This document shows positions 7,947 through 36,616 of a DNA stretch of 64,000 bases, piece after piece. Numbering within the stretch: the stretch's first letter is position 1; each line of letters starts with the position of its first letter. The stretch is from sequence record SRR22947727_2846. One strand, 5' to 3'. The notes under the pieces were generated by a model. The model was not told the origin of the DNA and made no database searches. It saw nothing but the letters and a program-made list of their open reading frames with translations. Made by a program: the position numbers and the translations under genes.

Positions 7947-9107
7947 ATGAGAGGCAAGAAACTAGCGGCTCTGTCGCTATTTGCGGCATCAACCGTTGTC
8001 TTGAGCGCATGCTCCGGCACCGGTGAGCTCACTCTCGATGTGCCCGACGTTCCGATGGTTGAGGAACTGGGTGCCTTCGAAGGTGAACTCAACATTGTTA
8101 ACTGGTCAGGCTTCGTAGAGCCTGCCTGGACCGATCAGTTCACCGCTGACACTGGTTGCGTAGTGAACCCACGCGTGGCGGGCACCTCCGATGAGATGGT
8201 GACCCTCATGCGTACTGGTGAGTACGACATCGTGTCCGCATCGGGTGACGCCGCTCTCCGCCTCATCGTGGGTGGAGACGTGCAGCCTTTGAACATTGAC
8301 CTGATTCCTAACTTCAGCGATGACATTGCTGAGGGTATGAAGGGTCAGATTTATGACACGGTCAATGGTCAGCCCTACGGTGTTCCGATCGGCCGTGGCG
8401 CCAACCTGCTCCAGTACAACGAGGACGTCACTGGTGGCGCCCCCGAGAGCTGGGATGTTGTGTGGGAGTCTGACAGCCCCTACGCCGGCAAGATCACCGC
8501 GTATGACGCACCGATCTACATTGCTGACGCTGCTGTCTACTTGATGTACCACAACCCAGAGCTGGGTATTGAGAACCCCTACGCATTGGATGAGGCCCAG
8601 CTTGCCGCTGCGGTGGACCTGCTCAAGCAGCAGAACTCCATCATCGGTGAGTACTGGTCTGACCCAGTAGCGCAGATCACCTCCTTTGTCGGTGGCAACA
8701 CCGTCGTGGGTACCTCATGGGAAGTTCTTCGTAAGTTCGCCGCAAGCGACAACCTGAAGACCACTCTCCCTGTGGAGGGCTCCACTGGTTGGTACGACGC
8801 TTGGTTGGTCAGCTCCACAACAGGCAACGTCAACTGTGCTTACGCATGGATGGACTACACCAGCCGCGCCGATGTGAATGGTGCTATCGCCATGAACTTC
8901 GGTATGGCTCCGGCGAACGTCGCTTTCTGCGCAACCAGCGCTGAAGCACAGGCTCACTGTGATGAGTTCGCGGCCGAGGACGAGGAGTTCTTCTCCAAGA
9001 TCTGGCCCTGGACCACCCCCATTGAGCAGTGCATCGATGGACGCACCGACGTCAAGTGCACCAGTTTCCAAGACTGGACCAACGCTTGGCTCACGGTTAA
9101 GGGATAA
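7947..9107 (+). CDS. ABC transporter substrate-binding lipoprotein, PotD/YdcS-like
   Basis: signal peptide with LSAC lipobox; YDIVSASGDA and PVEGSTGWYD family motifs; AAGGAA RBS. Confidence 0.9.
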   Translation: MRGKKLAALSLFAASTVVLSACSGTGELTLDVPDVPMVEELGAFEGELNIVNWSGFVEPAWTDQFTADTGCVVNPRVAGTSDEMVTLMRTGEYDIVSASGDAALRLIVGGDVQPLNIDLIPNFSDDIAEGMKGQIYDTVNGQPYGVPIGRGANLLQYNEDVTGGAPESWDVVWESDSPYAGKITAYDAPIYIADAAVYLMYHNPELGIENPYALDEAQLAAAVDLLKQQNSIIGEYWSDPVAQITSFVGGNTVVGTSWEVLRKFAASDNLKTTLPVEGSTGWYDAWLVSSTTGNVNCAYAWMDYTSRADVNGAIAMNFGMAPANVAFCATSAEAQAHCDEFAAEDEEFFSKIWPWTTPIEQCIDGRTDVKCTSFQDWTNAWLTVKG

Positions 9108-9114
9108 AACCCCA

Positions 9115-9145
9115 GGTGGGGTGGGGCCCTAGGCCCCACCCCATC
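9115..9145 (+). other. GC-rich intercistronic stem-loop after the substrate-binding protein gene
   Basis: GGTGGGGTGGGGCC-CTA-GGCCCCACCCCATC forms a 14-bp stem with one G-U pair; no U-tract. Confidence 0.75.
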
Positions 9146-9169
9146 ACCCCCTCAGGAAGGCGATCGGAC

Positions 9170-10069
9170 ATGAGTACACAGGTGAAGGACTCTGTGTCGA
9201 GCTCCCAGGAGCACTCACGCCCGCTGTCGACCTACCTCTTTCAGCGCTCGAGGATTCGCCTCATTGGGCTTCTCGCACTGCCGATGACGTGGCTTGTGGG
9301 CGTCTATATCGTCTCCCTGTTCCTGCTTCTCATCACGGCGTTTTGGGTCGTCAACCCCTTCACGTCTCGAGTGAGTCCCGGATTCACTCTCGATAACTTC
9401 ATCAGCATCATTGCTGTCCCCGCATACCTCTCCACCTCGCTCCGAACCCTCGGAATGGCTCTTGCCGTCACGGGAATCTCCGTGGTGTTCGCGGTTCCCT
9501 TGGGTATCTACATGGCCAAGCTTGCGTCCCCGTTCATGAGGAACCTTCTCGCCGTGGCCATCACGTTGCCGTTGTGGGCGGGCTACCTGGTGAAGATCCT
9601 CGCCATGAGGCTTGTATTCACCGAAAACGGCTTCATCAACTGGGCTTTTGGGCCACTAGGAATTCAAAGCCCCGGTTTCAATATGTGGGTGGCCATCATC
9701 ACCCTGACCTACCTGTGGTTCCCGTATATGGCGCTTCCTGTGTTCACCGCAATCCGGCAGATTCCTAACAGCCTCTTTGATGCATCAGCGGATATGGGAG
9801 CAAAGTCGTTCACCACAATATTTCGTGTGGTGTTGCCTCTCATCGTGCCGGCCATTATTGCGGGCTCGGTTTTCACGTTCTCGTTGAGTCTCGGCGATTA
9901 CCTCGCCGCTCGCTTCACCGGGGGAGCGACCCAAATGATTGGGAGCATCATCGCCTCCAACATCAACTTGAACCCGCCGGTTGCGGCAGCGTTCTCCATG
10001 GTTCCCATTGCCTTTGTCGTGATGTATCTCATGGTGGCCAGACGCACCGGGTCGCTGGAGAGGATGTAA
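9170..10069 (+). CDS. ABC transporter permease, PotB-like
   Basis: multiple TM segments; EAA-like loop DASADMGA; FSLSLGDY. Confidence 0.9.
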   Translation: MSTQVKDSVSSSQEHSRPLSTYLFQRSRIRLIGLLALPMTWLVGVYIVSLFLLLITAFWVVNPFTSRVSPGFTLDNFISIIAVPAYLSTSLRTLGMALAVTGISVVFAVPLGIYMAKLASPFMRNLLAVAITLPLWAGYLVKILAMRLVFTENGFINWAFGPLGIQSPGFNMWVAIITLTYLWFPYMALPVFTAIRQIPNSLFDASADMGAKSFTTIFRVVLPLIVPAIIAGSVFTFSLSLGDYLAARFTGGATQMIGSIIASNINLNPPVAAAFSMVPIAFVVMYLMVARRTGSLERM

Positions 10070-10073
10070 ACGC

Positions 10074-10883
10074 ATGCTCCAGATGTCACGAACCGCGAAG
10101 GTGGGCCTGCTCGCCATCGTTGGGTTCATCTTGGCCTTTATGTACATCCCGCTTTTTGTGGTGATCCTCAACAGCTTCAATGAGGCCCAGTTGTCCTCCT
10201 GGCCGATTGAGAACTTTTCCTTCTACTGGTGGGAATTCGCCGCTTCCTATGAGCCCATCCGGTTGGCCCTTCTCAACTCGGTGATTGTGGCGACCGCCGC
10301 CATGGTGATTGCCTCACTCCTGGGGACCTTAGTTGCCTTTGCTCTCAACCGTTACGAGTTCTTTGGTAAGAGCACCGTTAACCTGCTGGTTGTGCTCCCC
10401 ATTGCCCTGCCGGGGGTTGTGACGGGTGTTGCTTTTTCCAACACCTACTCCAACTTCCTGTCTCCCCTGGGAATCGATATTGGCTATTTCGGACTGATCG
10501 TCTCGCATGCAACCTTCTGCATTGTCATGGTGTTCAATAACGTCTTCGCGCGCTTGAAGAGGATGAACCCCAGCTTGCAGGAAGCATCCATGGATCTCGG
10601 GGCTGGACTATGGGAGACGTTCCGGCTGGTCACGTTCCCCCAATTTCGGTCTTCCTTCATCGCAGGAGCGCTTCTCGCTTTCGCTCTGAGTTTCGATGAG
10701 GTGTACGTCACCATCTTCACCGCGCCTCCCGGTGTTGACACCCTTCCCCTGTGGATTCTCAAGGAAATGGCCAGGCCCAATCAGGCCAGCGTGGTCAATG
10801 TGGTGGCAACGGTCGTTATCTTGTTGTCTCTCATCCCGGTCTATATCTCGCAGCGCCTCGCGCGCGACGATGACCAGAGGTAG
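10074..10883 (+). CDS. ABC transporter permease, PotC-like
   Basis: multiple TM segments; EASMDLGA EAA loop; LLAFALSFDE. Confidence 0.9.
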   Translation: MLQMSRTAKVGLLAIVGFILAFMYIPLFVVILNSFNEAQLSSWPIENFSFYWWEFAASYEPIRLALLNSVIVATAAMVIASLLGTLVAFALNRYEFFGKSTVNLLVVLPIALPGVVTGVAFSNTYSNFLSPLGIDIGYFGLIVSHATFCIVMVFNNVFARLKRMNPSLQEASMDLGAGLWETFRLVTFPQFRSSFIAGALLAFALSFDEVYVTIFTAPPGVDTLPLWILKEMARPNQASVVNVVATVVILLSLIPVYISQRLARDDDQR

Positions 10884-10931
10884 GGAATATTTGGGGTAGG
10901 TCAACCGTTATGCCCTTCCAAGGAGGTCACC

Positions 10932-11174
10932 ATGAGTGAGTGGAACTACACCAAGTGCGCAAAGCCTTTCACCAGTGTTGACGAGGCGCGTGAGTACATG
11001 ACGTCTCGCGGCTTCGAGGGTCAAATCCTCGCCCGTGACAACGGGGGCTACACCGCAGTGTGTCCGACCTATCCGGAGGGTTTTTATCCTGATGCGATTC
11101 CGGTGGAAACGGTGACGGGATCAGCACCCCAGACACTGCCTGTAATTCAGCCAGCGGAAGCGTGTTGCGACTAA
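10932..11174 (+). CDS. hypothetical 80-aa protein with four Cys, ending ...EACCD
   Basis: strong AGGAGG RBS just upstream; fills the gap exactly; stop overlaps the convergent gene's stop by 4 nt. Confidence 0.75.
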   Translation: MSEWNYTKCAKPFTSVDEAREYMTSRGFEGQILARDNGGYTAVCPTYPEGFYPDAIPVETVTGSAPQTLPVIQPAEACCD

Positions 11175-12157
11175 AGACCCAGCAGTTTGTCGGTGTCCCC
11201 GTAGACCTCCATGGCGCCCACCTGTGCAACGGTGTCGAGGACTACGTGGCCGCCTGGATTGGTGTGGGTGAGGTGAATGACGGCGTTGAGCGTCTCTTCC
11301 ACCCGTTGATGCATGGCCTCTCTCACAGGGGCATGCAGTGCACCGCCTCCGGTCCGCTCGGCATCGATAGTGAGGGTCCCATCTGGACCCGAAAGCTCCC
11401 AATGGACATGGGTATCCGTGATGTCCAGACGCCGCTCGGTGGTTCGGTTGTAAGTGGTGAAACGATGGAGCCGCCCCGAGTGGTAGAGGCCGGCAATGAA
11501 ACCCCTAAAGGCCCCACCCCTCCACGGGATGATAGCCACTGAGCCGATGAACGACGCCTCTGGTGCCCCGTCAAGATGATTGGAGTGCAGCCAGACGTAC
11601 CCTTCGGGGAACGCTTTCCCCCAGTCCTTCTCGATGTACCCACGACCCCCACTGAAATCTGTCGGGGTGCCCTCCACGGACAGGGAGCCACCCAGGCCGT
11701 GCCCGAACGACACAATTCCGTGGAAGCATTCCATGAACGGAACAAGGCCGTACCACCCCATAATTCCTGGTTCCCGCAACGTCACCGGCCACGGGTTGAG
11801 GGGTGTGGTGAACTCTATGTCGCCGCTCAGCTGGGGCAGATTGAGTGTCACCCCGTGCGAGGAGAAATGGTTGTCCCCGACGGAGACGGAAAACTCAGTG
11901 CTGCTCGCCGCAAATTCGTCGACAGCGAACCGGTGGTACCAGGATCGTCCGCTCGCGCCATCCAACACTTGCACGAAGGCTTCGCGAGTGTGGCCGTCGA
12001 GGCCGAGGAAAACTCCGGGAATGACAGCCCAGCGTTGAGCGAGATTCTCCGAGACTAATTTGATGTACCAACCCTCGAAAAACTTAGTCCTCACCCCAGC
12101 TCCGTGGAACGCTTCGGGATTCTTCACTCCCCGGAAATAGTCCACTGGGCTTCGCAT
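11171..12157 (-). CDS. tocopherol cyclase family protein
   Basis: FFEGWYIK, PGIMGWYGLVPFMECFHG and GYIEKDWGKAFPEGYVWLHSN motifs. Confidence 0.85.
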   Translation of the reverse strand: MRSPVDYFRGVKNPEAFHGAGVRTKFFEGWYIKLVSENLAQRWAVIPGVFLGLDGHTREAFVQVLDGASGRSWYHRFAVDEFAASSTEFSVSVGDNHFSSHGVTLNLPQLSGDIEFTTPLNPWPVTLREPGIMGWYGLVPFMECFHGIVSFGHGLGGSLSVEGTPTDFSGGRGYIEKDWGKAFPEGYVWLHSNHLDGAPEASFIGSVAIIPWRGGAFRGFIAGLYHSGRLHRFTTYNRTTERRLDITDTHVHWELSGPDGTLTIDAERTGGGALHAPVREAMHQRVEETLNAVIHLTHTNPGGHVVLDTVAQVGAMEVYGDTDKLLGL

Positions 12158-30586: not shown

Positions 30587-30719
30587 GGCTCGCGGGGCTG
30601 GAGTGTCCGGTGTCGAGGTCGAATCGTGACATAATGTGGAGGAAGGCCCTGCGAGTTCACATCCGTGAAACTTGACAAGGGTTTTCTTACTGCCCGTCAC
30701 ACAGTGGAGCAGGTGGCTT

Positions 30720-32519
30720 ATGGCTCAACGCACACCGTCCGAATCTCGTGCGGGAAAAAAGCCACAGAAACAGAGTCTTCTGGATCGTGTCCGCGGTTTT
30801 GGGCGTGGTTCTTCACAAACTGACAAGAAAGCAGCACCAACACCTGTGACCCCAGCAGCGAAAAAGCCCGCCACAAAGTCCGCACCTTCGAAGCCTGCTT
30901 CCACCCCAGCAGCCAAGAAAACTGCCGCAAAGAAGGCTCCCGCGACTAAAGCGCCAGCGCAAAAGGCACCTGCAAAGAAGCCTGCACCTGCGAAATCCGC
31001 CGCCCCAGCTCCTGCGGCGAAGAAGCCTGCAGCGAAAAAGCCGGTTGCCAAGAAGCCCGTTGCCCAGAAACCGGCAGCGAAGAAGCCTGCAGCAAAGAAG
31101 CCTGCGGTGGCAAAGTCTGCTGCTCCCAAGACCGCAGCCGCCAAGCCGACTACGAAGGCTCCCGCGAAGAAAGCTGCACCAGCCAAGGCGTCGACCGCGA
31201 AAGCTGCCGCTTCCAAAGCTCCTGCAAAGAAAACTCCCGCGAAAGCGGCTGCCGCGAAGGCTCCAGCAAAGGCCACACCTGCCAAGAAAGCTGCACCTGT
31301 TGCTCCCAAGTCGAGCGGTGCCACACGGGGCAAAAAAGCTTCGTCTGCGGCCGGTGTTCTCGACGGCGATGGGGACGATGAGCCCGACGTCATCGAGGTT
31401 GAGGATAAGTCCGGTGACACTGAGACCGATGTAGTTCCTGACGCTGTCGCAGAGAAACTGGGTGCCGAGATCATTGCCGGGCTTGCGGAAGCTGCTCTGG
31501 ATGACGAGGACGAGGTCGAAAAAGCTGTGCTGCCGCAGGGCGCCCTCGTGCTCTCGAGCACAGATGACGATGATGCACCCATCATTTCCACGACAATTAC
31601 CGGCGCCACCGCGGATCCTGTCAAGGACTACCTGAAGCAAATCGGTAAAGTCGCGCTCCTCAATGCTGAGCAAGAAGTGGAGCTCGCGTTGCGTATCGAA
31701 GCCGGCCTGTTTGCGGAAGAGAAGCTCTCCTCGCTCACCGCGTCACAGCGCACTACGAAGCTCGCGCGTGAACTGCACGAGATTGCGAAGGATGGCCAGC
31801 GGGCTAAGAACCACCTACTGGGAGCAAACCTGCGTCTGGTGGTGTCGCTGGCGAAGCGCTACACCGGTCGAGGAATGCAGTTCCTGGACCTCATTCAAGA
31901 GGGAAACCTTGGTCTGATTCGTGCTGTCGAGAAGTTCGACTACACCAAGGGCTTCAAGTTCTCGACCTACGCCACCTGGTGGATCCGGCAGGCGATCACG
32001 CGCGCCATGGCCGACCAAGCTCGCACGATTCGTATCCCCGTGCACATGGTCGAAGTCATCAACAAGCTCGCTCGTGTGCAGCGCCAAATGTTGCAAGACC
32101 TCGGTCGCGAGCCCACGCCGGAAGAGTTGGCTCGCGAACTGGACATGACGCCCGAAAAGGTCGTCGAAGTGCAGAAATATGGCCGCGAGCCCATCTCCCT
32201 TCACACCCCCTTGGGCGAGGACGGTGACAGCGAATTTGGTGATCTCATTGAGGACACCGAAGCAGTGGTTCCTGCGGATGCAGTGGGATTCACCATGCTG
32301 CAACGCCAGTTGGAAATGTTGCTCGATTCGCTCTCAGAGCGCGAAGCCGGCGTGATTCGTATGCGCTTCGGTCTTGGCGATGGCATGCCCAAGACCTTGG
32401 ATCAAATAGGAGACACCTTCGGTGTTACCCGTGAGCGCATCCGCCAAATAGAGTCCAAGACGATGGCGAAATTGCGCCACCCGTCCCGCTCGCAGGCTCT
32501 TCGCGACTACCTCGAGTAG
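30720..32519 (+). CDS. sigA: principal RNA polymerase sigma factor (SigA/HrdB) with long Lys/Ala/Pro-rich N-terminus
   Basis: [49 protein letters not shown] and TRERIRQIE motifs. Confidence 0.97.
31017..31106 (+). repeat. in-frame 15-bp tandem repeat encoding (A-K/Q-K-P-A/V) x6 within the sigA N-terminus
   Basis: gcgaagaagcctgca-like units; protein reads [30 protein letters not shown]. Confidence 0.8.
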
Positions 32520-32524
32520 GCCCT

Positions 32525-33796
32525 GTGGGTAAGTTTCCCTCGTTCGTTATCGCGAAACTTTTGCGGTTTCTCACGCGATTGCGTGGAGGGGGCTCGGCGT
32601 TCCCCGGCCTTGCACTCCTGAGAATGCGTCCCGATGTTCTCTCGGAGACCCTCGGAGCACTGCCACGCGGCACTGTGTTTGTGTCAGGGTCGAATGGAAA
32701 GTCGACGACCACCACAATGATGGCGTCCCTGATGCGCGCTCATGGTGTCTCCGTATTCACCAATCCCGCCGGCGGAAACCTGCCACAGGGCCTGGCGTCC
32801 GCGGTAGTGGGCGCTGCCAGCGTCACAGGTCGTGTCTCTGCGGACATCGCTGTCCTCGAGGTTGACGAGGCATACGCGGGCATGATTGCCGATGCCCTCG
32901 CTCCTGACTGGGTGGTGTTGACCAATCTCCAAGTCGATCAGCTCAATCGCTTCGGTGAACCCGAGAACGTGTATCGAATGCTGCGTGATCTTGCTGCTCG
33001 TGCACGAGTAGGTGTGATCGTCAATGCTGCGGATGCCAACCTTGTGGCGTTGGGAGCTGAGGTAGCTGGTGACGGCTCAAGGGTCGAGTTCGTCGACCTG
33101 TCCTCAGATGCTCTCGCCAGCGCCGCTCACGGTGTCGTGGCGGCACCACTGTTTGCTGAGGCGCCGGAGAGACTCCCTGGTGATTCCCTCGCGACCTTGG
33201 TCTCGACAGAAGGCCAGCGGGCGACAGTGAGACTCGGTGGCAGCACTTTCGAGCTCGATCTCCCCGCTCCTGGTTTGCATTACGCCGTGGATGCTGCACT
33301 CGCGCTGGGATGCCTGGCTGCGGTCCTCGGGAAGCCCATCGACCTCGACGCTGTGGGCACGGCAATGAGCGCTGGAGCGCCGGTCTATGGGCGCGGCGAG
33401 GTCATTACCCACAAGGGCGCGCAGATAGCGCTCACGATGATGAAAAACCTCCCCAGTTTGCAGGTCAACATCGATGCGATGAGCCATTCGCCGGAGCTTG
33501 TCTGGGTTGCAGTAGACGAGGGGACCCCCGATCCCTCCTGGCTCTATGAAGTCGATCTGGGCCCGATCGACCATGTGGACGTCCTCACCGGCACCAAAGC
33601 GTGGCAGTGGGCTGTCTTCCTCGACTACCGAGGGATTCCTTATGGCCAGGTCATTGAAGACTCCGCGGAGGCCCTCGCCGCCGTGCGATCGATGGCTCTG
33701 GAACGAGGCGTCACGGTATCGGCCATCGTCAATTACGAGCAGATGATGCTTATTCGGCGGCTTGCCGGCTATAAAGAACTTGAGGGCGCGCGATGA
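32525..33796 (+). CDS. murT: MurT-type Mur ligase (lipid II isoglutaminyl synthase family, DUF1727 C-terminus), divergent
   Basis: GSAFPG, GSNGKSTT P-loop, LEVDEA, NLQVDQLNRFGE, YGRGE, KN and DPSWLYEVD motifs; followed by a gatD-like gene. Confidence 0.88.
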   Translation: MGKFPSFVIAKLLRFLTRLRGGGSAFPGLALLRMRPDVLSETLGALPRGTVFVSGSNGKSTTTTMMASLMRAHGVSVFTNPAGGNLPQGLASAVVGAASVTGRVSADIAVLEVDEAYAGMIADALAPDWVVLTNLQVDQLNRFGEPENVYRMLRDLAARARVGVIVNAADANLVALGAEVAGDGSRVEFVDLSSDALASAAHGVVAAPLFAEAPERLPGDSLATLVSTEGQRATVRLGGSTFELDLPAPGLHYAVDAALALGCLAAVLGKPIDLDAVGTAMSAGAPVYGRGEVITHKGAQIALTMMKNLPSLQVNIDAMSHSPELVWVAVDEGTPDPSWLYEVDLGPIDHVDVLTGTKAWQWAVFLDYRGIPYGQVIEDSAEALAAVRSMALERGVTVSAIVNYEQMMLIRRLAGYKELEGAR

Positions 33797-34524
33797 CCCA
33801 GTGGTTCACCATCGCGAGAGTTCTTCCCGAGCGTCTCGGGCTGAATGGAAGCTCGGCATCTGCCGAGATTCTCGCCATGACATTGCGCCAGATGGGCCAT
33901 GAGGCGTCCATTGTTGATATTCATGGTCCAGCTGACGCGCCCAGCACCGTTGACATCGTGACCATCGGTAGCGGCTCTACCTCGCAACTTGCCCCTGCGG
34001 CGACAGATTTGATCGCTCTCGTGCGAACTTTTCAGCATTGGAAGAATTCTGGGGCGCACTGGGTTGCCATCGGAATGGGCTGGGATCTCCTGGGGGAGTC
34101 CTTGATGACTGCAGAGGGAGACAAAGTCCCTGGCGCAGGAATTTTTCCCTCTCGTGCCGATTACCGCGCCGGGAGGTTATCGGGCGAGGTTCGAGGCTCT
34201 GACTTCAAAGGTCGCGAGAGCGCCGGCTATATCAATCAGGTTGGCACGACTGAGTTGAAGGACGATGTAGGGCCGCTCATGACGCTGGAGGGTGCGCCCG
34301 AGGGATGGCCTGAACAGGAGGGGCTTCGTGCGCCACAACTGTTCGCCACCAGGCTTGGTGGGCCAGCGCTGGCCCTCAATCCGCACTGGGCGCTCGACAT
34401 TGTGACCGATGTGCTGGCGTCACGCGGGCTACAGCCACAACTTAACGATTTTCACACCCGCGTTGAGTCTGCGGCGGCTCGCGCACGAGCGTTGATCGTC
34501 GGACGGCTTAGTTCTCGTCGATAA
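33793..34524 (+). CDS. gatD: GatD/CobQ-like type 1 glutamine amidotransferase homolog, catalytic residues apparently lost
   Basis: GatD layout and GPxLxxNP motif kept, but AIGMGWDLLG replaces AICGGYQLLG and TRLGGP replaces TYxHGP; 4-bp overlap with murT. Confidence 0.8.
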   Translation: MTQWFTIARVLPERLGLNGSSASAEILAMTLRQMGHEASIVDIHGPADAPSTVDIVTIGSGSTSQLAPAATDLIALVRTFQHWKNSGAHWVAIGMGWDLLGESLMTAEGDKVPGAGIFPSRADYRAGRLSGEVRGSDFKGRESAGYINQVGTTELKDDVGPLMTLEGAPEGWPEQEGLRAPQLFATRLGGPALALNPHWALDIVTDVLASRGLQPQLNDFHTRVESAAARARALIVGRLSSRR

Positions 34525-35581
34525 ATTTTCGCGGCACGTGGGGAGCGAGCGAGGCCACCACCTCATCGCCGATCGTGTTGGCCCACGAGGCCCAGTCCTC
34601 GGCGCGAGGTGACGCCCCCTGTGGGTCACCCCAAAGCGTGATCCACTCACCCACTGGCGGAAGGGGTGAATCGCCCTCGGAGTGAATGATGAGGTGATCG
34701 GCGTCCACCGTCTCTATGGGGTAGCGAACTCCGTGGTGGCTGACCCAGCCGAGGCCAGCCTGCGGGGGTAAGAGCCCATCGCCAAATCCCATTCCGAGCG
34801 TCGCCCTGTCGCCTTGTGGGCTGTGGGAGAGCACCTGAGCGTGAACGGACATCACGGGTTCGAAGCCCATGTCCTGAGCTGTGCGGTCATCGAAGGGTGA
34901 CACCCCGTACACGATGATGCCAATACGAACCATGTCGAGTCGGGTTTCAGGTAAGTCCGCTGCAGCGGCGGACGCCGCAATGTGAAGAAGGGACGGAGAC
35001 AGCCCCGCATCCCGAGCGATGGCGACAGCGTCCTGGAATCGTTGCAGGGAGGACCTGTCCTCCTCCAGTGAGGTGTCCGCAAGGTGGGACCAGATTCCGA
35101 CGACAGTGATGTGACCCTCGGCCTCCAGGGCAGCCGCGTGACGCACGAGTTCTGGCCAGTGCTCTGCCAATGCTCCGTTTCGGTGGAGACCAGTGTCGAT
35201 TTTGAGGTGAACACGGGTGTTCATCGCTGGAGCCTGTTCCACCAGAAGATCGAGTTGCCAGCTTCCAGAAATTCCGAGGTCCAGTTTTGCCCGAGCTGCG
35301 GCACCGAAGTCACTCGTGGGGGAGTGCAGCCAGCACAGCAGGGGTAAGTTCGGCTCGGTCTCCCGCAGGGCTATCCCTTGGGCGATGTCGAGTACGGCGA
35401 GAGCGTCGGCGCCCGCTTCACGGGCGGCGCGGGCGAGGGCCTGGGCACCATGACCATACGCCTCGGACTTGACCGCGATCATGAGCTGGGCATCACCGGC
35501 CAGCGTGTCCTTTGCGTGGGAAACGTTGGCCCGAAATGCCGGGAGCGAAATTTCCGCGTAGCAGCGAGGTGCTAGTTCCAT
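34508..35581 (-). CDS. alanine racemase family protein with intact PLP barrel and degenerate C-terminal domain
   Basis: AVKSEAYGHG (PLP Lys38), HLKIDTGLHRNG, WSHLA and DMVRIGIIVYG motifs; no VSYG Tyr motif. Confidence 0.88.
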   Translation of the reverse strand: MELAPRCYAEISLPAFRANVSHAKDTLAGDAQLMIAVKSEAYGHGAQALARAAREAGADALAVLDIAQGIALRETEPNLPLLCWLHSPTSDFGAAARAKLDLGISGSWQLDLLVEQAPAMNTRVHLKIDTGLHRNGALAEHWPELVRHAAALEAEGHITVVGIWSHLADTSLEEDRSSLQRFQDAVAIARDAGLSPSLLHIAASAAAADLPETRLDMVRIGIIVYGVSPFDDRTAQDMGFEPVMSVHAQVLSHSPQGDRATLGMGFGDGLLPPQAGLGWVSHHGVRYPIETVDADHLIIHSEGDSPLPPVGEWITLWGDPQGASPRAEDWASWANTIGDEVVASLAPHVPRKFIDEN

Positions 35582-36222
35582 ATTTTGACCACCCGGGGCG
35601 CTAGCTGGGCGATGAGGAGCGCCACCGGACGAGAGGACCACTGTGACCATTCGGTCACGCTGGGATCAGTTCCCCAGATGGTCACCACGTCACCAAGATC
35701 GGCCGATTCATCTCCGATGTCGAGAACCATCTGGTCCATGGCGATCCGACCGGCAACCCTGTGTCGGATGCCGCCGAGAGAAACTTCGCCTTTCATGGAC
35801 GCGCTTCTTGGCACTCCGTCGGCGAATCCCACGCTCACCAATGCCAGGGTCGTTTCAGACGTTGTTCGGTACTGATAGCCATAGGACACCGGAGTTCCCG
35901 CGGGCACACGCTTCAGGGACACGACATCGCCTTCCAGGGTCACGACGGGACGAGGCGCTTCCAGCCAGCTTGTGGAACCAGGGGCTTCCTGTGACGTGGG
36001 GCTCAGAACAGACGCTTCTTTGTCTGCGGGTGAGTGCAGCGCCTGCGCCACACCGGCATCGCGAGCCAGTGCGCTCACGCGCTCAATGCCCAGGCCGTAC
36101 GCGTTGCAGCGCAAGTCGGGGATGAGTTCCCGCGAGGCCAGTCCGGCAAACGCTTCAACGAGTGCCTCCTGGGAGAGCAGTGCTCGTCGCAGTGGGGCGC
36201 TCAGACTAGCTGGCGCGGTCAT
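35572..36222 (-). CDS. alanine racemase C-terminal-domain protein with vestigial barrel
   Basis: PVSYGYQY, VGFADGVPR and GRIAMDQ motifs; N-terminal remnant DLRCNAYGLG lacks the PLP Lys. Confidence 0.88.
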   Translation of the reverse strand: MTAPASLSAPLRRALLSQEALVEAFAGLASRELIPDLRCNAYGLGIERVSALARDAGVAQALHSPADKEASVLSPTSQEAPGSTSWLEAPRPVVTLEGDVVSLKRVPAGTPVSYGYQYRTTSETTLALVSVGFADGVPRSASMKGEVSLGGIRHRVAGRIAMDQMVLDIGDESADLGDVVTIWGTDPSVTEWSQWSSRPVALLIAQLAPRVVKIWN

Positions 36223-36439
36223 TCCGTAGGCGGTCTGTCTCGTCGTGCCACCCGACCACCTTGTCGCCTAGCGACTCGCGATACTTGGCCGCGTGGTGAC
36301 CGCAGAACAAAAGTTCACCGCTGGCAAGAGTGACGCGCACATAAGCCTGCGCACCGCAGCTATCGCAGAGGTCCATTGCTCCCAAGGCTGCGGGGGTCTC
36401 GAGGGGTGCTTCTGTTGTCTCAGGTGCTGCGTACGACAT
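36206..36439 (-). CDS. small putative zinc-binding protein (CDSC...FCGHH), conserved near parE in Actinobacteria
   Basis: DLCDSCGAQAYVRV...LLFCGHH pattern; GAGGAG RBS. Confidence 0.85.
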   Translation of the reverse strand: MSYAAPETTEAPLETPAALGAMDLCDSCGAQAYVRVTLASGELLFCGHHAAKYRESLGDKVVGWHDETDRLRNDRAS

Positions 36440-36616
36440 TTCTTCTCCTCGAGCTCGTGTGGGCTGTTGCACTATTCCACCACGCCTTCTTGTCATTCAC
36501 CTGCCAGACTCTCCCAGTTTCGCCGACCGCGTATTGCGCCTTCTCGGCGGTGCTCGGGGTGTGGCGGGGTGGTGAGCAATAGGCTCGGGACGTTAGTTCG
36601 CAAGGAAAGAGAGACC

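Follow-up and report, generated by a model that had tools for sequence, protein, structure and literature searches.

The lipid II isoglutaminyl synthase MurT/GatD (EC 6.3.5.13) has been described from Staphylococcus aureus, Streptococcus pneumoniae, Streptococcus pyogenes, and Mycobacterium tuberculosis (PDB 6gs2, 6h5e, 6fqb, 9sq9, and 5n9m). The S. aureus enzyme is reported to be inactive when it carries C94S, C94A, H189A, or R128A and to have severely reduced activity with D349N (PMC6113224 and PMC5871853). Arg128 binds glutamine (PMC5871853), and the 189-197 loop and the C-terminal helix of GatD contact MurT (PMC6113224). When the nucleophile of GatD is replaced by glycine (C94G), glutamine-dependent amidation is abolished, although the NH3-dependent amidation by MurT at pH 8.5 is described as unaffected (PMC3266927). 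Table 2 of the same paper gives MurT without GatD as inactive with any donor, and gives no NH3-dependent activity at pH 7.5 (PMC3266927). Here, we analyzed a 64,000-nucleotide stretch of DNA from sequence record SRR22947727_2846 (the window), which carries the same two-gene unit, namely, a murT-like gene followed by a gatD-like gene. In the encoded proteins, hereafter MurT-like and GatD-like, all three residues of the Cys94/His189/MurT-Asp349 triad are missing, and the Microbacteriaceae sampled all lack the Cys and the MurT Asp.

Gene pair and catalytic positions

The two genes and the positions compared with the canonical proteins are as follows.

32525..33796, plus strand: murT-like gene, 423 residues, Mur-ligase middle domain and MurT-type C-terminal domain (Pfam, phmmer)
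32687..32707, plus strand: ATP P-loop GSNGKST (residues 55-61), aligned to GTNGKT of S. aureus and S. pneumoniae
Residues 110-116 of MurT-like: VLEVDEA with the Mg-binding Glu, aligned to iEiDE of S. aureus and S. pneumoniae
33512..33541, plus strand: VDEGTPDPSW (residues 330-339) where canonical MurT has ..ND.YADGRD.SW, with the triad Asp deleted
33793..34524, plus strand: gatD-like gene, 243 residues, class-I glutamine amidotransferase fold (open reading frame, GATase_3, and structure model)
34072..34074, plus strand: GGA codon for Gly94, at the position of the nucleophile Cys94 (phmmer alignment, codon read)
34225..34239, plus strand: GYINQ (residues 145-149), replacing the canonical GFENH (phmmer alignment)
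34357..34359, plus strand: GGT codon for Gly189, at the position of the catalytic His189 (phmmer alignment, codon read)

GatD-like scored 38 bits on GATase_3 (Pfam PF07685, cut-off 27), while it reached only 42 and 38 bits on the two NCBIfam GatD equivalog models, against cut-offs of 400 (NF045636) and 450, respectively. With GatD-like and MurT-like as phmmer queries, the significant relatives among PDB chains were GatD and MurT structures only, and the E values of GatD-like against S. pneumoniae and S. aureus GatD ranged from 6e-9 to 8e-7. The AlphaFold model of GatD-like had a predicted local distance difference test (pLDDT) score of 92.9, and its nine best PDB matches were all GatD chains, with template modeling (TM) scores of 0.78-0.83; other amidotransferases trailed at TM 0.44-0.65. 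GatD-like has the GatD fold, that of a CobB/CobQ-type class-I glutamine amidotransferase, but has neither Cys94 nor His189 and stays below both equivalog cut-offs.

In the phmmer alignments, AIGMGWDLLG of GatD-like was paired with aiCggfqllg and tiCggyqflg of S. pneumoniae and S. aureus GatD, and TRLGGP was paired with yfHgp and ylHgp, such that the HGP motif around His189 reads GGP. These alignments therefore place Gly94 and Gly189 exactly at the catalytic Cys and His. The whole 243-residue protein contains no cysteine and thus has no alternative thiol nucleophile. The original prediction, which was made from the letters of the window, had read AIGMGWDLLG, TRLGGP, and GYINQ in this open reading frame and had named the two glycine codons; all three motifs were found in the translation, and GGA and GGT stand where it had placed them. 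As it had also said, each codon is two base changes away from Cys (TGY) or His (CAY), and the two substitutions are more than chance or sequencing error. Its view of GatD-like as a GatD homologue without the catalytic Cys and His agrees with these alignments, which support the identification of the protein as a probable pseudo-glutaminase, i.e., a catalytically dead GatD homologue.

The ATG of the gatD-like gene overlaps the TGA of the murT-like gene by 4 nucleotides (ATGA). MurT-like scored 44 bits on Mur_ligase_M, 16.9 bits on MurT_C (Pfam cut-off 25), and 80 bits on the MurT equivalog model NF045635 (cut-off 800). Its best PDB matches were MurT chains (6fqb_A, 1.5e-22), and canonical MurT proteins of other families aligned with it over the full length at 31-35% identity. 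It has the middle and C-terminal domains of the Mur ligase superfamily and the ATP site of MurT (GxNGKT P-loop and Mg-binding Glu). In contrast, the alignment of VDEGTPDPSW to nanyaDgiDtsw (canonical ..NANYADGIDTSW) leaves three residues unmatched, among them the triad Asp (D349 in S. aureus), and the deletion covers the ADG of the canonical motif. The altered state of this MurT motif had also been noted by eye in the original prediction, and its proposal of a coordinated loss of the whole triad in a full-length retained gene is supported by the results presented here and below.

Compared with canonical MurT/GatD, the natural pair thus retains the GatD fold, the P-loop and Mg-binding Glu of the MurT middle domain, Arg128, and a predicted interface between the GatD 189-197 loop plus C-terminal helix and the MurT C-domain. 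It differs in the loss of Cys94, His189, and MurT Asp349, and in changes of the FENH motif and of oxyanion and lid residues in GatD-like. The nearest experimental counterpart is the S. aureus GatD-C94G mutant (Munch et al. 2012, PMC3266927), which likewise has Gly at the nucleophile position and is reported to retain synthetase activity with an external nucleophile, GatD being still required. However, C94G is a laboratory mutant in which the rest of the site is intact, whereas the natural state appears ancient and family-wide, and the MurT Asp is deleted as well.

The zinc-ribbon cysteines of MurT were absent in the family MurT-like proteins and also in several canonical actinomycete MurT proteins. 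The zinc-ribbon loss was, therefore, rejected as a distinguishing mark.

Distribution, selection, and conserved residues

The window comes from a marine actinobacterium of the Pontimonas lineage in the Microbacteriaceae. MurT-like is 98% identical to its homologue in a Pontimonas metagenome-assembled genome (MAG), and the nearest genome (G001, 1.2 Mb), whose GatD-like is 99% identical, was used as a stand-in for the source genome. G001 carries only the Cys-less pair, and no canonical MurT/GatD was found there.

A GatD-like profile matched 121 of the 151 family genomes and 85 of the 101 genera. Members with the pair include Microbacterium, Curtobacterium, Leifsonia, Agromyces, Rathayibacter, Cryobacterium, Pseudoclavibacter, Herbiconiux, Rhodoluna, Aquiluna, and others. 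Among 114 aligned full-length sequences (the query and homologues down to ~45% identity), Gly94 was invariant and Gly189 was present in 113. Cys at position 94 was absent from all 110 distinct family GatD-like sequences and from the 30 best family loci plus the query locus. The residues at positions 94 and 189 in these 31 loci were Ala/His in 11, Gly/His in 10, Gly/Gly in 6, and Gly/Ser, Ser/His, Ser/Gln, and Ala/Asn in one each; five additional family loci had Gly/His three times, Gly/Gln, and Gly/Tyr. A scan with the MurT-like alignment retrieved 80 loci with organism names, 77 of which had a gatD-like gene; one of these was a cut fragment and 75 had no Cys, such that the sole Cys/His locus was a MAG labeled Microsaccharimonas, which has a canonical MurT. 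His189 was lost in Pontimonas and Okibacterium (Gly/Gly), Microbacterium and Curtobacterium (Gly/Gln), and Agreia (Gly/Lys), and kept in Agromyces, Rathayibacter, Cryobacterium, Leifsonia, Herbiconiux, and Pseudoclavibacter.

Outside the family, all 38 GatD homologues from eight other families of the same order had Cys/His, and no GatD match was present in the searched genomes of fourteen families of that order. The 24 best-scoring non-family loci in a 301-genome class-wide sample, which were the best scorers against the Cys-less profile and represent 11 further families and two already counted, were likewise Cys/His (24/24). In sum, 62 of 62 GatD homologues examined from other actinomycete families were canonical. 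A murT homologue lay upstream of gatD in 73 of 73 loci examined, an order that, like the ATGA overlap, would fit co-transcription of the two genes. The three-residue MurT deletion was found in all 36 family rows and the Asp in all 38 rows from other families, while the P-loop and the LE.DE magnesium site were intact in all 74 aligned MurT rows.

In a tree of 227 sequences, all family tips and 85 database representatives formed one clade of 122, all Cys-less, although the support of this node was weak (0.41). Thirteen Cys-less sequences lay outside the main clade, one of which (P0248) belongs to a Bacillota group, and four changes between Cys and non-Cys were counted over the whole tree. Of the 135 nearest 50%-cluster representatives in a global library, 98 lacked the Cys. 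The original prediction had proposed a comparison of the Cys/His status between Microbacteriaceae and other Actinobacteria; as observed, the Cys and the MurT Asp were missing in all Microbacteriaceae sampled and in no other actinomycete family examined, and the loss of the His was confined to some Microbacteriaceae lineages, Pontimonas included. Given this family-wide absence and its lack in other families, the loss of Cys and Asp appears to be a shared, ancient family character, and that of His appears to be lineage-specific.

The ratio of nonsynonymous to synonymous substitution rates (dN/dS) of the gatD-like gene against close relatives in Pontimonas and Microbacteriaceae MAGs was 0.033 (dS 0.22) and 0.070, and that of the murT-like gene against the same relatives was 0.074 and 0.078. 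The gatD-like gene is under strong purifying selection. The pair is also retained in genomes of 0.9-1.8 Mb.

We then compared the residues of 110 distinct family GatD-like proteins with those of 39 canonical GatD proteins. Y18, G60, D63, Q66, C94, Q98, E147, H149, Y187, and H189 were invariant in the 39 canonical proteins but not conserved in the family, where E147 and H149 were found in 75% and 73%, respectively. Conserved in both groups were G59, G61, R128, G145, N148, G190, L193, N196, P197, and D201. Arg128 was found in 93% of the family proteins, and the interface residues G190, P191, L193, N196, P197, and D201 were conserved among them. The mean pairwise identity within the family was 0.43 for GatD-like vs. 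0.52 for MurT-like, compared with 0.46 vs. 0.45 elsewhere; this faster divergence of GatD-like fits a catalytic constraint that may have been lost with a structural role retained.

The complex was predicted with the MurT-like C-domain (residues 275-423) and the full GatD-like. The predicted complex gave an ipSAE of 0.92, compared with 0.28 for the best control, which may reflect likeness to solved MurT/GatD complexes; in the benchmark, the ipSAE mark was attained by 51 of 78 solved complexes and by 2 of 108 mismatched pairs. Contacts agreed between runs to at least 98%, and the pLDDT of the partner was at least 92. The predicted interface joins MurT-like residues 332 and 335-342, which lie in the altered motif, with GatD-like residues 189-191, 194-197, and 220-238. 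The prediction, then, indicates likeness to the solved complexes rather than proof of binding. With its catalytic residues gone, purifying selection acting on it, and the predicted partner interface kept, GatD-like would qualify as a pseudoenzyme.

In streamlined relatives, a shortened GatD-like of ~195-208 residues with an internal deletion was observed 3' of an intact MurT-like. These loci are L064 (in genome G012, with a 205-residue open frame), L129 and L143 (both Rhodoluna), and L153 (Aquiluna). In these lineages, the GatD-like partner seems to be undergoing further erosion.

Chromosomal slot and neighboring genes

The pair lies in a slot between the gene for the principal sigma factor and a DUF7455 gene. 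The features of this slot in the window, and the genes found in the same slot at two other loci, are as follows.

30672..32519, plus strand: principal sigma factor gene, upstream boundary of the slot (NF004561, 766 bits)
34508..35650, minus strand: alanine-racemase-family gene, 380 residues, with the pyridoxal phosphate (PLP) lysine present but the catalytic-Tyr stretch deleted (TIGR00492, 177 bits)
35572..36222, minus strand: truncated racemase paralogue, 216 residues, with an intact, Tyr-bearing C-terminal domain and a remnant N-terminus (Ala_racemase_C only, 106 bits)
36206..36496, minus strand: DUF7455 gene, downstream boundary of the slot (PF24254, 77 bits)
Locus L159, 7861-8562 (plus strand) and 8625-9644 (minus strand): CofE-fold and ATP-grasp genes
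Locus L161, 9653-10351 (plus strand) and 10380-11399 (minus strand): CofE-fold and ATP-grasp genes

The gene order PAC2 - sigA - murT-like - gatD-like was conserved in the named Microbacteriaceae loci, and the split racemase adjoins the gatD-like gene, on either strand, in about half of them. In the 380-residue racemase, AVKSEAYGHG aligned with vvKsnayghg, and a 15-residue gap fell over vsYGhhy. In the 216-residue protein, vsYGyqy aligned with vsYGhhy, and dlRcnayglg aligned with vvKsnayghg, which places Arg at the position of the PLP lysine. As judged from these alignments, a heterodimer of the two proteins would have one complete active site. A separate housekeeping alr gene was found elsewhere in G001 and in two other genomes (G030 and G124).

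In two genomes without the pair (G002 and G023; loci L159 and L161), the sigA-DUF7455 slot holds genes for a CofE-fold protein (PF01996, F420_ligase family) and an ATP-grasp protein (PF14397). The ATP-grasp gene was found in 27 of the 151 family genomes. Of these 27, 18 belong to the 30 genomes with no GatD-like match and 9 to the 121 that have one; in 7 of these 9, it lay directly beside the gatD-like gene. This association is suggestive, the genomes being kin rather than independent. ATP-grasp enzymes that act in cell-wall synthesis generally add an amino acid, not ammonia.

Within genus g34, one genome (G237) has the murT/gatD-like pair of the Gly/Gln type, and two (G035 and G127) have the ATP-grasp gene and no pair, which suggests a recent replacement of the pair by the ATP-grasp gene inside this genus.

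The boundary genes showed features of their own. Positions 30672-31600 (plus strand) of the sigma factor gene encode a ~300-residue Ala/Lys/Pro-rich N-terminal extension with AAKKPA-like repeats, which yields long spurious open reading frames on the opposite strand and in other frames. The DUF7455 protein is small, has a Cys-rich motif and ~50-60% identity across the family, and is encoded between the slot and a parE/gyrB-like gene.

Candidate function of the pair

The loss of the triad, together with the retained ligase machinery and the C94G precedent, argues for an active ligase whose nucleophile is not derived from glutamine. By this analogy, the natural pair is best read as a ligase that would have an obligatory, non-catalytic GatD partner. 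The more specific reading, in which MurT-like and GatD-like form an active ATP-dependent ligase with a dead GatD partner and the bridge amino acid of group-B peptidoglycan most likely serves as the nucleophile, is our tentative preference, at somewhat less than an even chance.

In the mechanism that we propose, the pair would have been derived from the lipid II-amidating MurT/GatD, with the glutaminase half permanently dead. MurT-like would bind ATP and activate a carboxylate, by homology the D-Glu alpha-carboxyl at position 2 of the lipid-linked peptidoglycan precursor. GatD-like would make no ammonia and would be kept as a structural or allosteric partner required by MurT-like; such a partner requirement has been shown for S. 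aureus MurT, and we infer it for the present pair. The nucleophile would be the first amino acid of the interpeptide bridge, namely, D-diaminobutyrate (D-Dab), D-ornithine (D-Orn), or glycine (Gly), depending on the genus. The degenerate glutamine pocket with Arg128 might, more speculatively, hold this amino acid, and the adjoining split racemase may supply it in the D-form. The full proposal, in which the pair is the missing bridge ligase joining D-Dab, D-Orn, or Gly to D-Glu, the pocket presents the amino acid, the ATP-grasp/CofE cassette substitutes for the pair in part of the family, and the D-diamino acid comes from the split racemase, is possible but on balance unlikely in all its parts.

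Two families of known enzymes bear on this proposal. The amino-acid-adding Mur ligases MurE and MurF have the middle (ATP) domain in common with MurT-like. In MurE, the C-terminal-domain motif D(D,N)P(N,A)/DNPR is reported to recognize the incoming diamino acid (PMC6113224). The altered motif of MurT-like falls at the corresponding place. Unlike MurE and MurF, MurT-like has no N-terminal UDP-binding domain and has a GatD-like partner, and its substrate would be the D-Glu alpha-carboxyl rather than the growing C-terminus. The second family is that of the ATP-grasp side-chain ligases of peptidoglycan, such as the Enterococcus faecium D-aspartate ligase Aslfm, which add a branch amino acid to the precursor in an ATP-dependent manner and have a dedicated racemase gene alongside. 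An ATP-grasp gene also fills the slot of the pair in family genomes without it, but the fold is unrelated to MurT-like, and the role of the slot's ATP-grasp protein on peptidoglycan is putative.

The preference for a bridge amino acid comes, in the first place, from the wall chemistry. The Microbacteriaceae are named "peptidoglycan group B actinomycetes" in a reference title of PMC7033078, and of the ten genera tabulated in that paper, nine have B types and one has an unknown structure. Rhodoluna, a close relative of Pontimonas, is given type B2beta with D-Ala-D-Dab (PMC4156110), and for Clavibacter, a D-Dab bridge from D-Glu to D-Ala is described (PMC9603630). The bridge of the Microbacteriaceae is attached at the D-Glu alpha-carboxyl, the same group that MurT activates, such that the family without the triad is one that cross-links through this group. 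The bridge amino acid is further favored because Arg128 and, in most genera, further pocket residues are conserved, because an extra racemase adjoins the pair, and because an alternative ligase fills the same slot. Two MurT-like subtypes (VDEGTPDPSW and GSDVRDPSY) were also considered as a mark of the first bridge residue, with wall types taken from general knowledge, but they gave no split of the genera along this line, and no claim is attached to them.

Several observations weigh against a bridge ligase. The link with the wall type is a correlation at the family level, which amounts to a single evolutionary event. In the searches, 12 of the 151 family genomes had neither the pair nor the ATP-grasp gene, although one of the 12 (G012) has a degenerate pair found in another way, and the sigA-DUF7455 slot of one genome (G016) is empty; if every group-B wall depended on this ligase, it would be expected in all of these genomes, unless they have a third solution. 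The pair is present in genera with different first bridge residues (Dab, Orn, and Gly), which would require several specificities. The Pontimonas-lineage pocket is also without E147, H149, and H189, which would fit a mere scaffold better than an amino-acid site. The racemase pair is absent at the Agromyces, Rathayibacter, Curtobacterium, and Rhodoluna loci, and these genera also need D-diamino acids. Finally, the muropeptides of Clavibacter michiganensis are described as including amidated D-Glu (PMC9603630), and a plain NH3-dependent amidation therefore stays in consideration.

Free ammonia is, indeed, the main rival to the bridge amino acid. MurT-like would then amidate the D-Glu alpha-carboxyl of bridge-less stems with free NH3, and GatD-like would be structural only; we regard this as unlikely, though it is the alternative that fares best. 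Besides the amidated D-Glu listed among the C. michiganensis muropeptide modifications (PMC9603630), it is favored by the S. aureus precedent, in which the C94G complex used NH3 or NH4Cl to amidate lipid II at pH 8.5 and MurT alone was inactive (PMC3266927), and by a Pontimonas-lineage pocket that is degenerate well beyond Cys and His. The same S. aureus data, however, give no NH3-dependent activity at pH 7.5 (PMC3266927, Table 2). The loss also coincides exactly with the sole actinomycete family that uses the D-Glu alpha-carboxyl for its cross-bridge, and a pure scaffold would not require the conservation of Arg128 and, in most genera, of E147, N148, H149, and H189. In addition, the alternative occupant of the slot is an ATP-grasp ligase. 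Marine and freshwater oligotrophs, moreover, meet little free ammonia, which counts against this alternative. Group-B lineages are also known outside the Microbacteriaceae, among them the Bacillota Erysipelothrix, Eubacterium limosum, and Acetobacterium.

A non-enzymatic complex, in which the two proteins would serve as a lipid II-binding or regulatory module and carry out no ligation, is considerably less probable. The scores of both subunits far under the equivalog cut-offs, the MurT_C match under the Pfam cut-off, and the faster evolution of GatD-like relative to MurT-like than in canonical pairs are in line with it. Nevertheless, none of the 36 family MurT-like rows has lost the P-loop or the LE.DE Mg site, the dN/dS of MurT-like is 0.07-0.08, and 65 positions, including ATP-site residues, are invariant across 16 diverse family MurT-like proteins, all of which speak against such a module.

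That GatD-like is still a glutaminase through another nucleophile and base is very improbable. A few members combine Ser94 with His189 (1 of the 31 loci and 2 of the 77), and a Ser-His pair is conceivable in principle, but C94S is reported as inactive in S. aureus (PMC6113224), the oxyanion Gly60 as well as D63, Q66, Q98, and Y187, which are invariant in the 39 canonical proteins, vary within the family, the MurT partner has lost its Asp, and the protein of the window has Gly at both positions and no Cys at all. The idea of a decaying relic, in which the pair is being lost and the substitutions are neutral, is hardly credible, since the shortened genes of ~200 residues in Rhodoluna, Aquiluna, and G012 and the lack of a GatD-like match in about a fifth of the family genomes sampled stand against a dN/dS of 0.03-0.07, Gly94 and Gly189 that are invariant or nearly so in 114 sequences, intact frames with the ATGA overlap, and retention in streamlined genomes.

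In the literature searched, from which subscription journals were mostly outside, neither a natural Cys-less GatD nor a link between MurT/GatD and group-B peptidoglycan was found, and the same search found no account of the genes responsible for the 2-to-4 cross-bridge of such walls. The pair, read as a ligase that descends from MurT/GatD and has a pseudo-glutaminase as its second subunit, would thus be a variant of the known MurT/GatD, and apparently a new one.

MurT/GatD is regarded as a glutamine-dependent amidotransferase and an antibiotic target, and yet a whole family has a version without the glutaminase site. GatD can, then, persist as a pure partner subunit, and the ligase chemistry of the Microbacteriaceae pair would be uncoupled from glutamine. 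Annotation is affected as well, in that public records label the GatD-like proteins "type 1 glutamine amidotransferase" or "GatD." For the Microbacteriaceae, of which group-B peptidoglycan is the defining chemotaxonomic trait, the pair, the adjoining split racemase, and the ATP-grasp cassette are three concrete candidates for the genes of the 2-to-4 cross-bridge.

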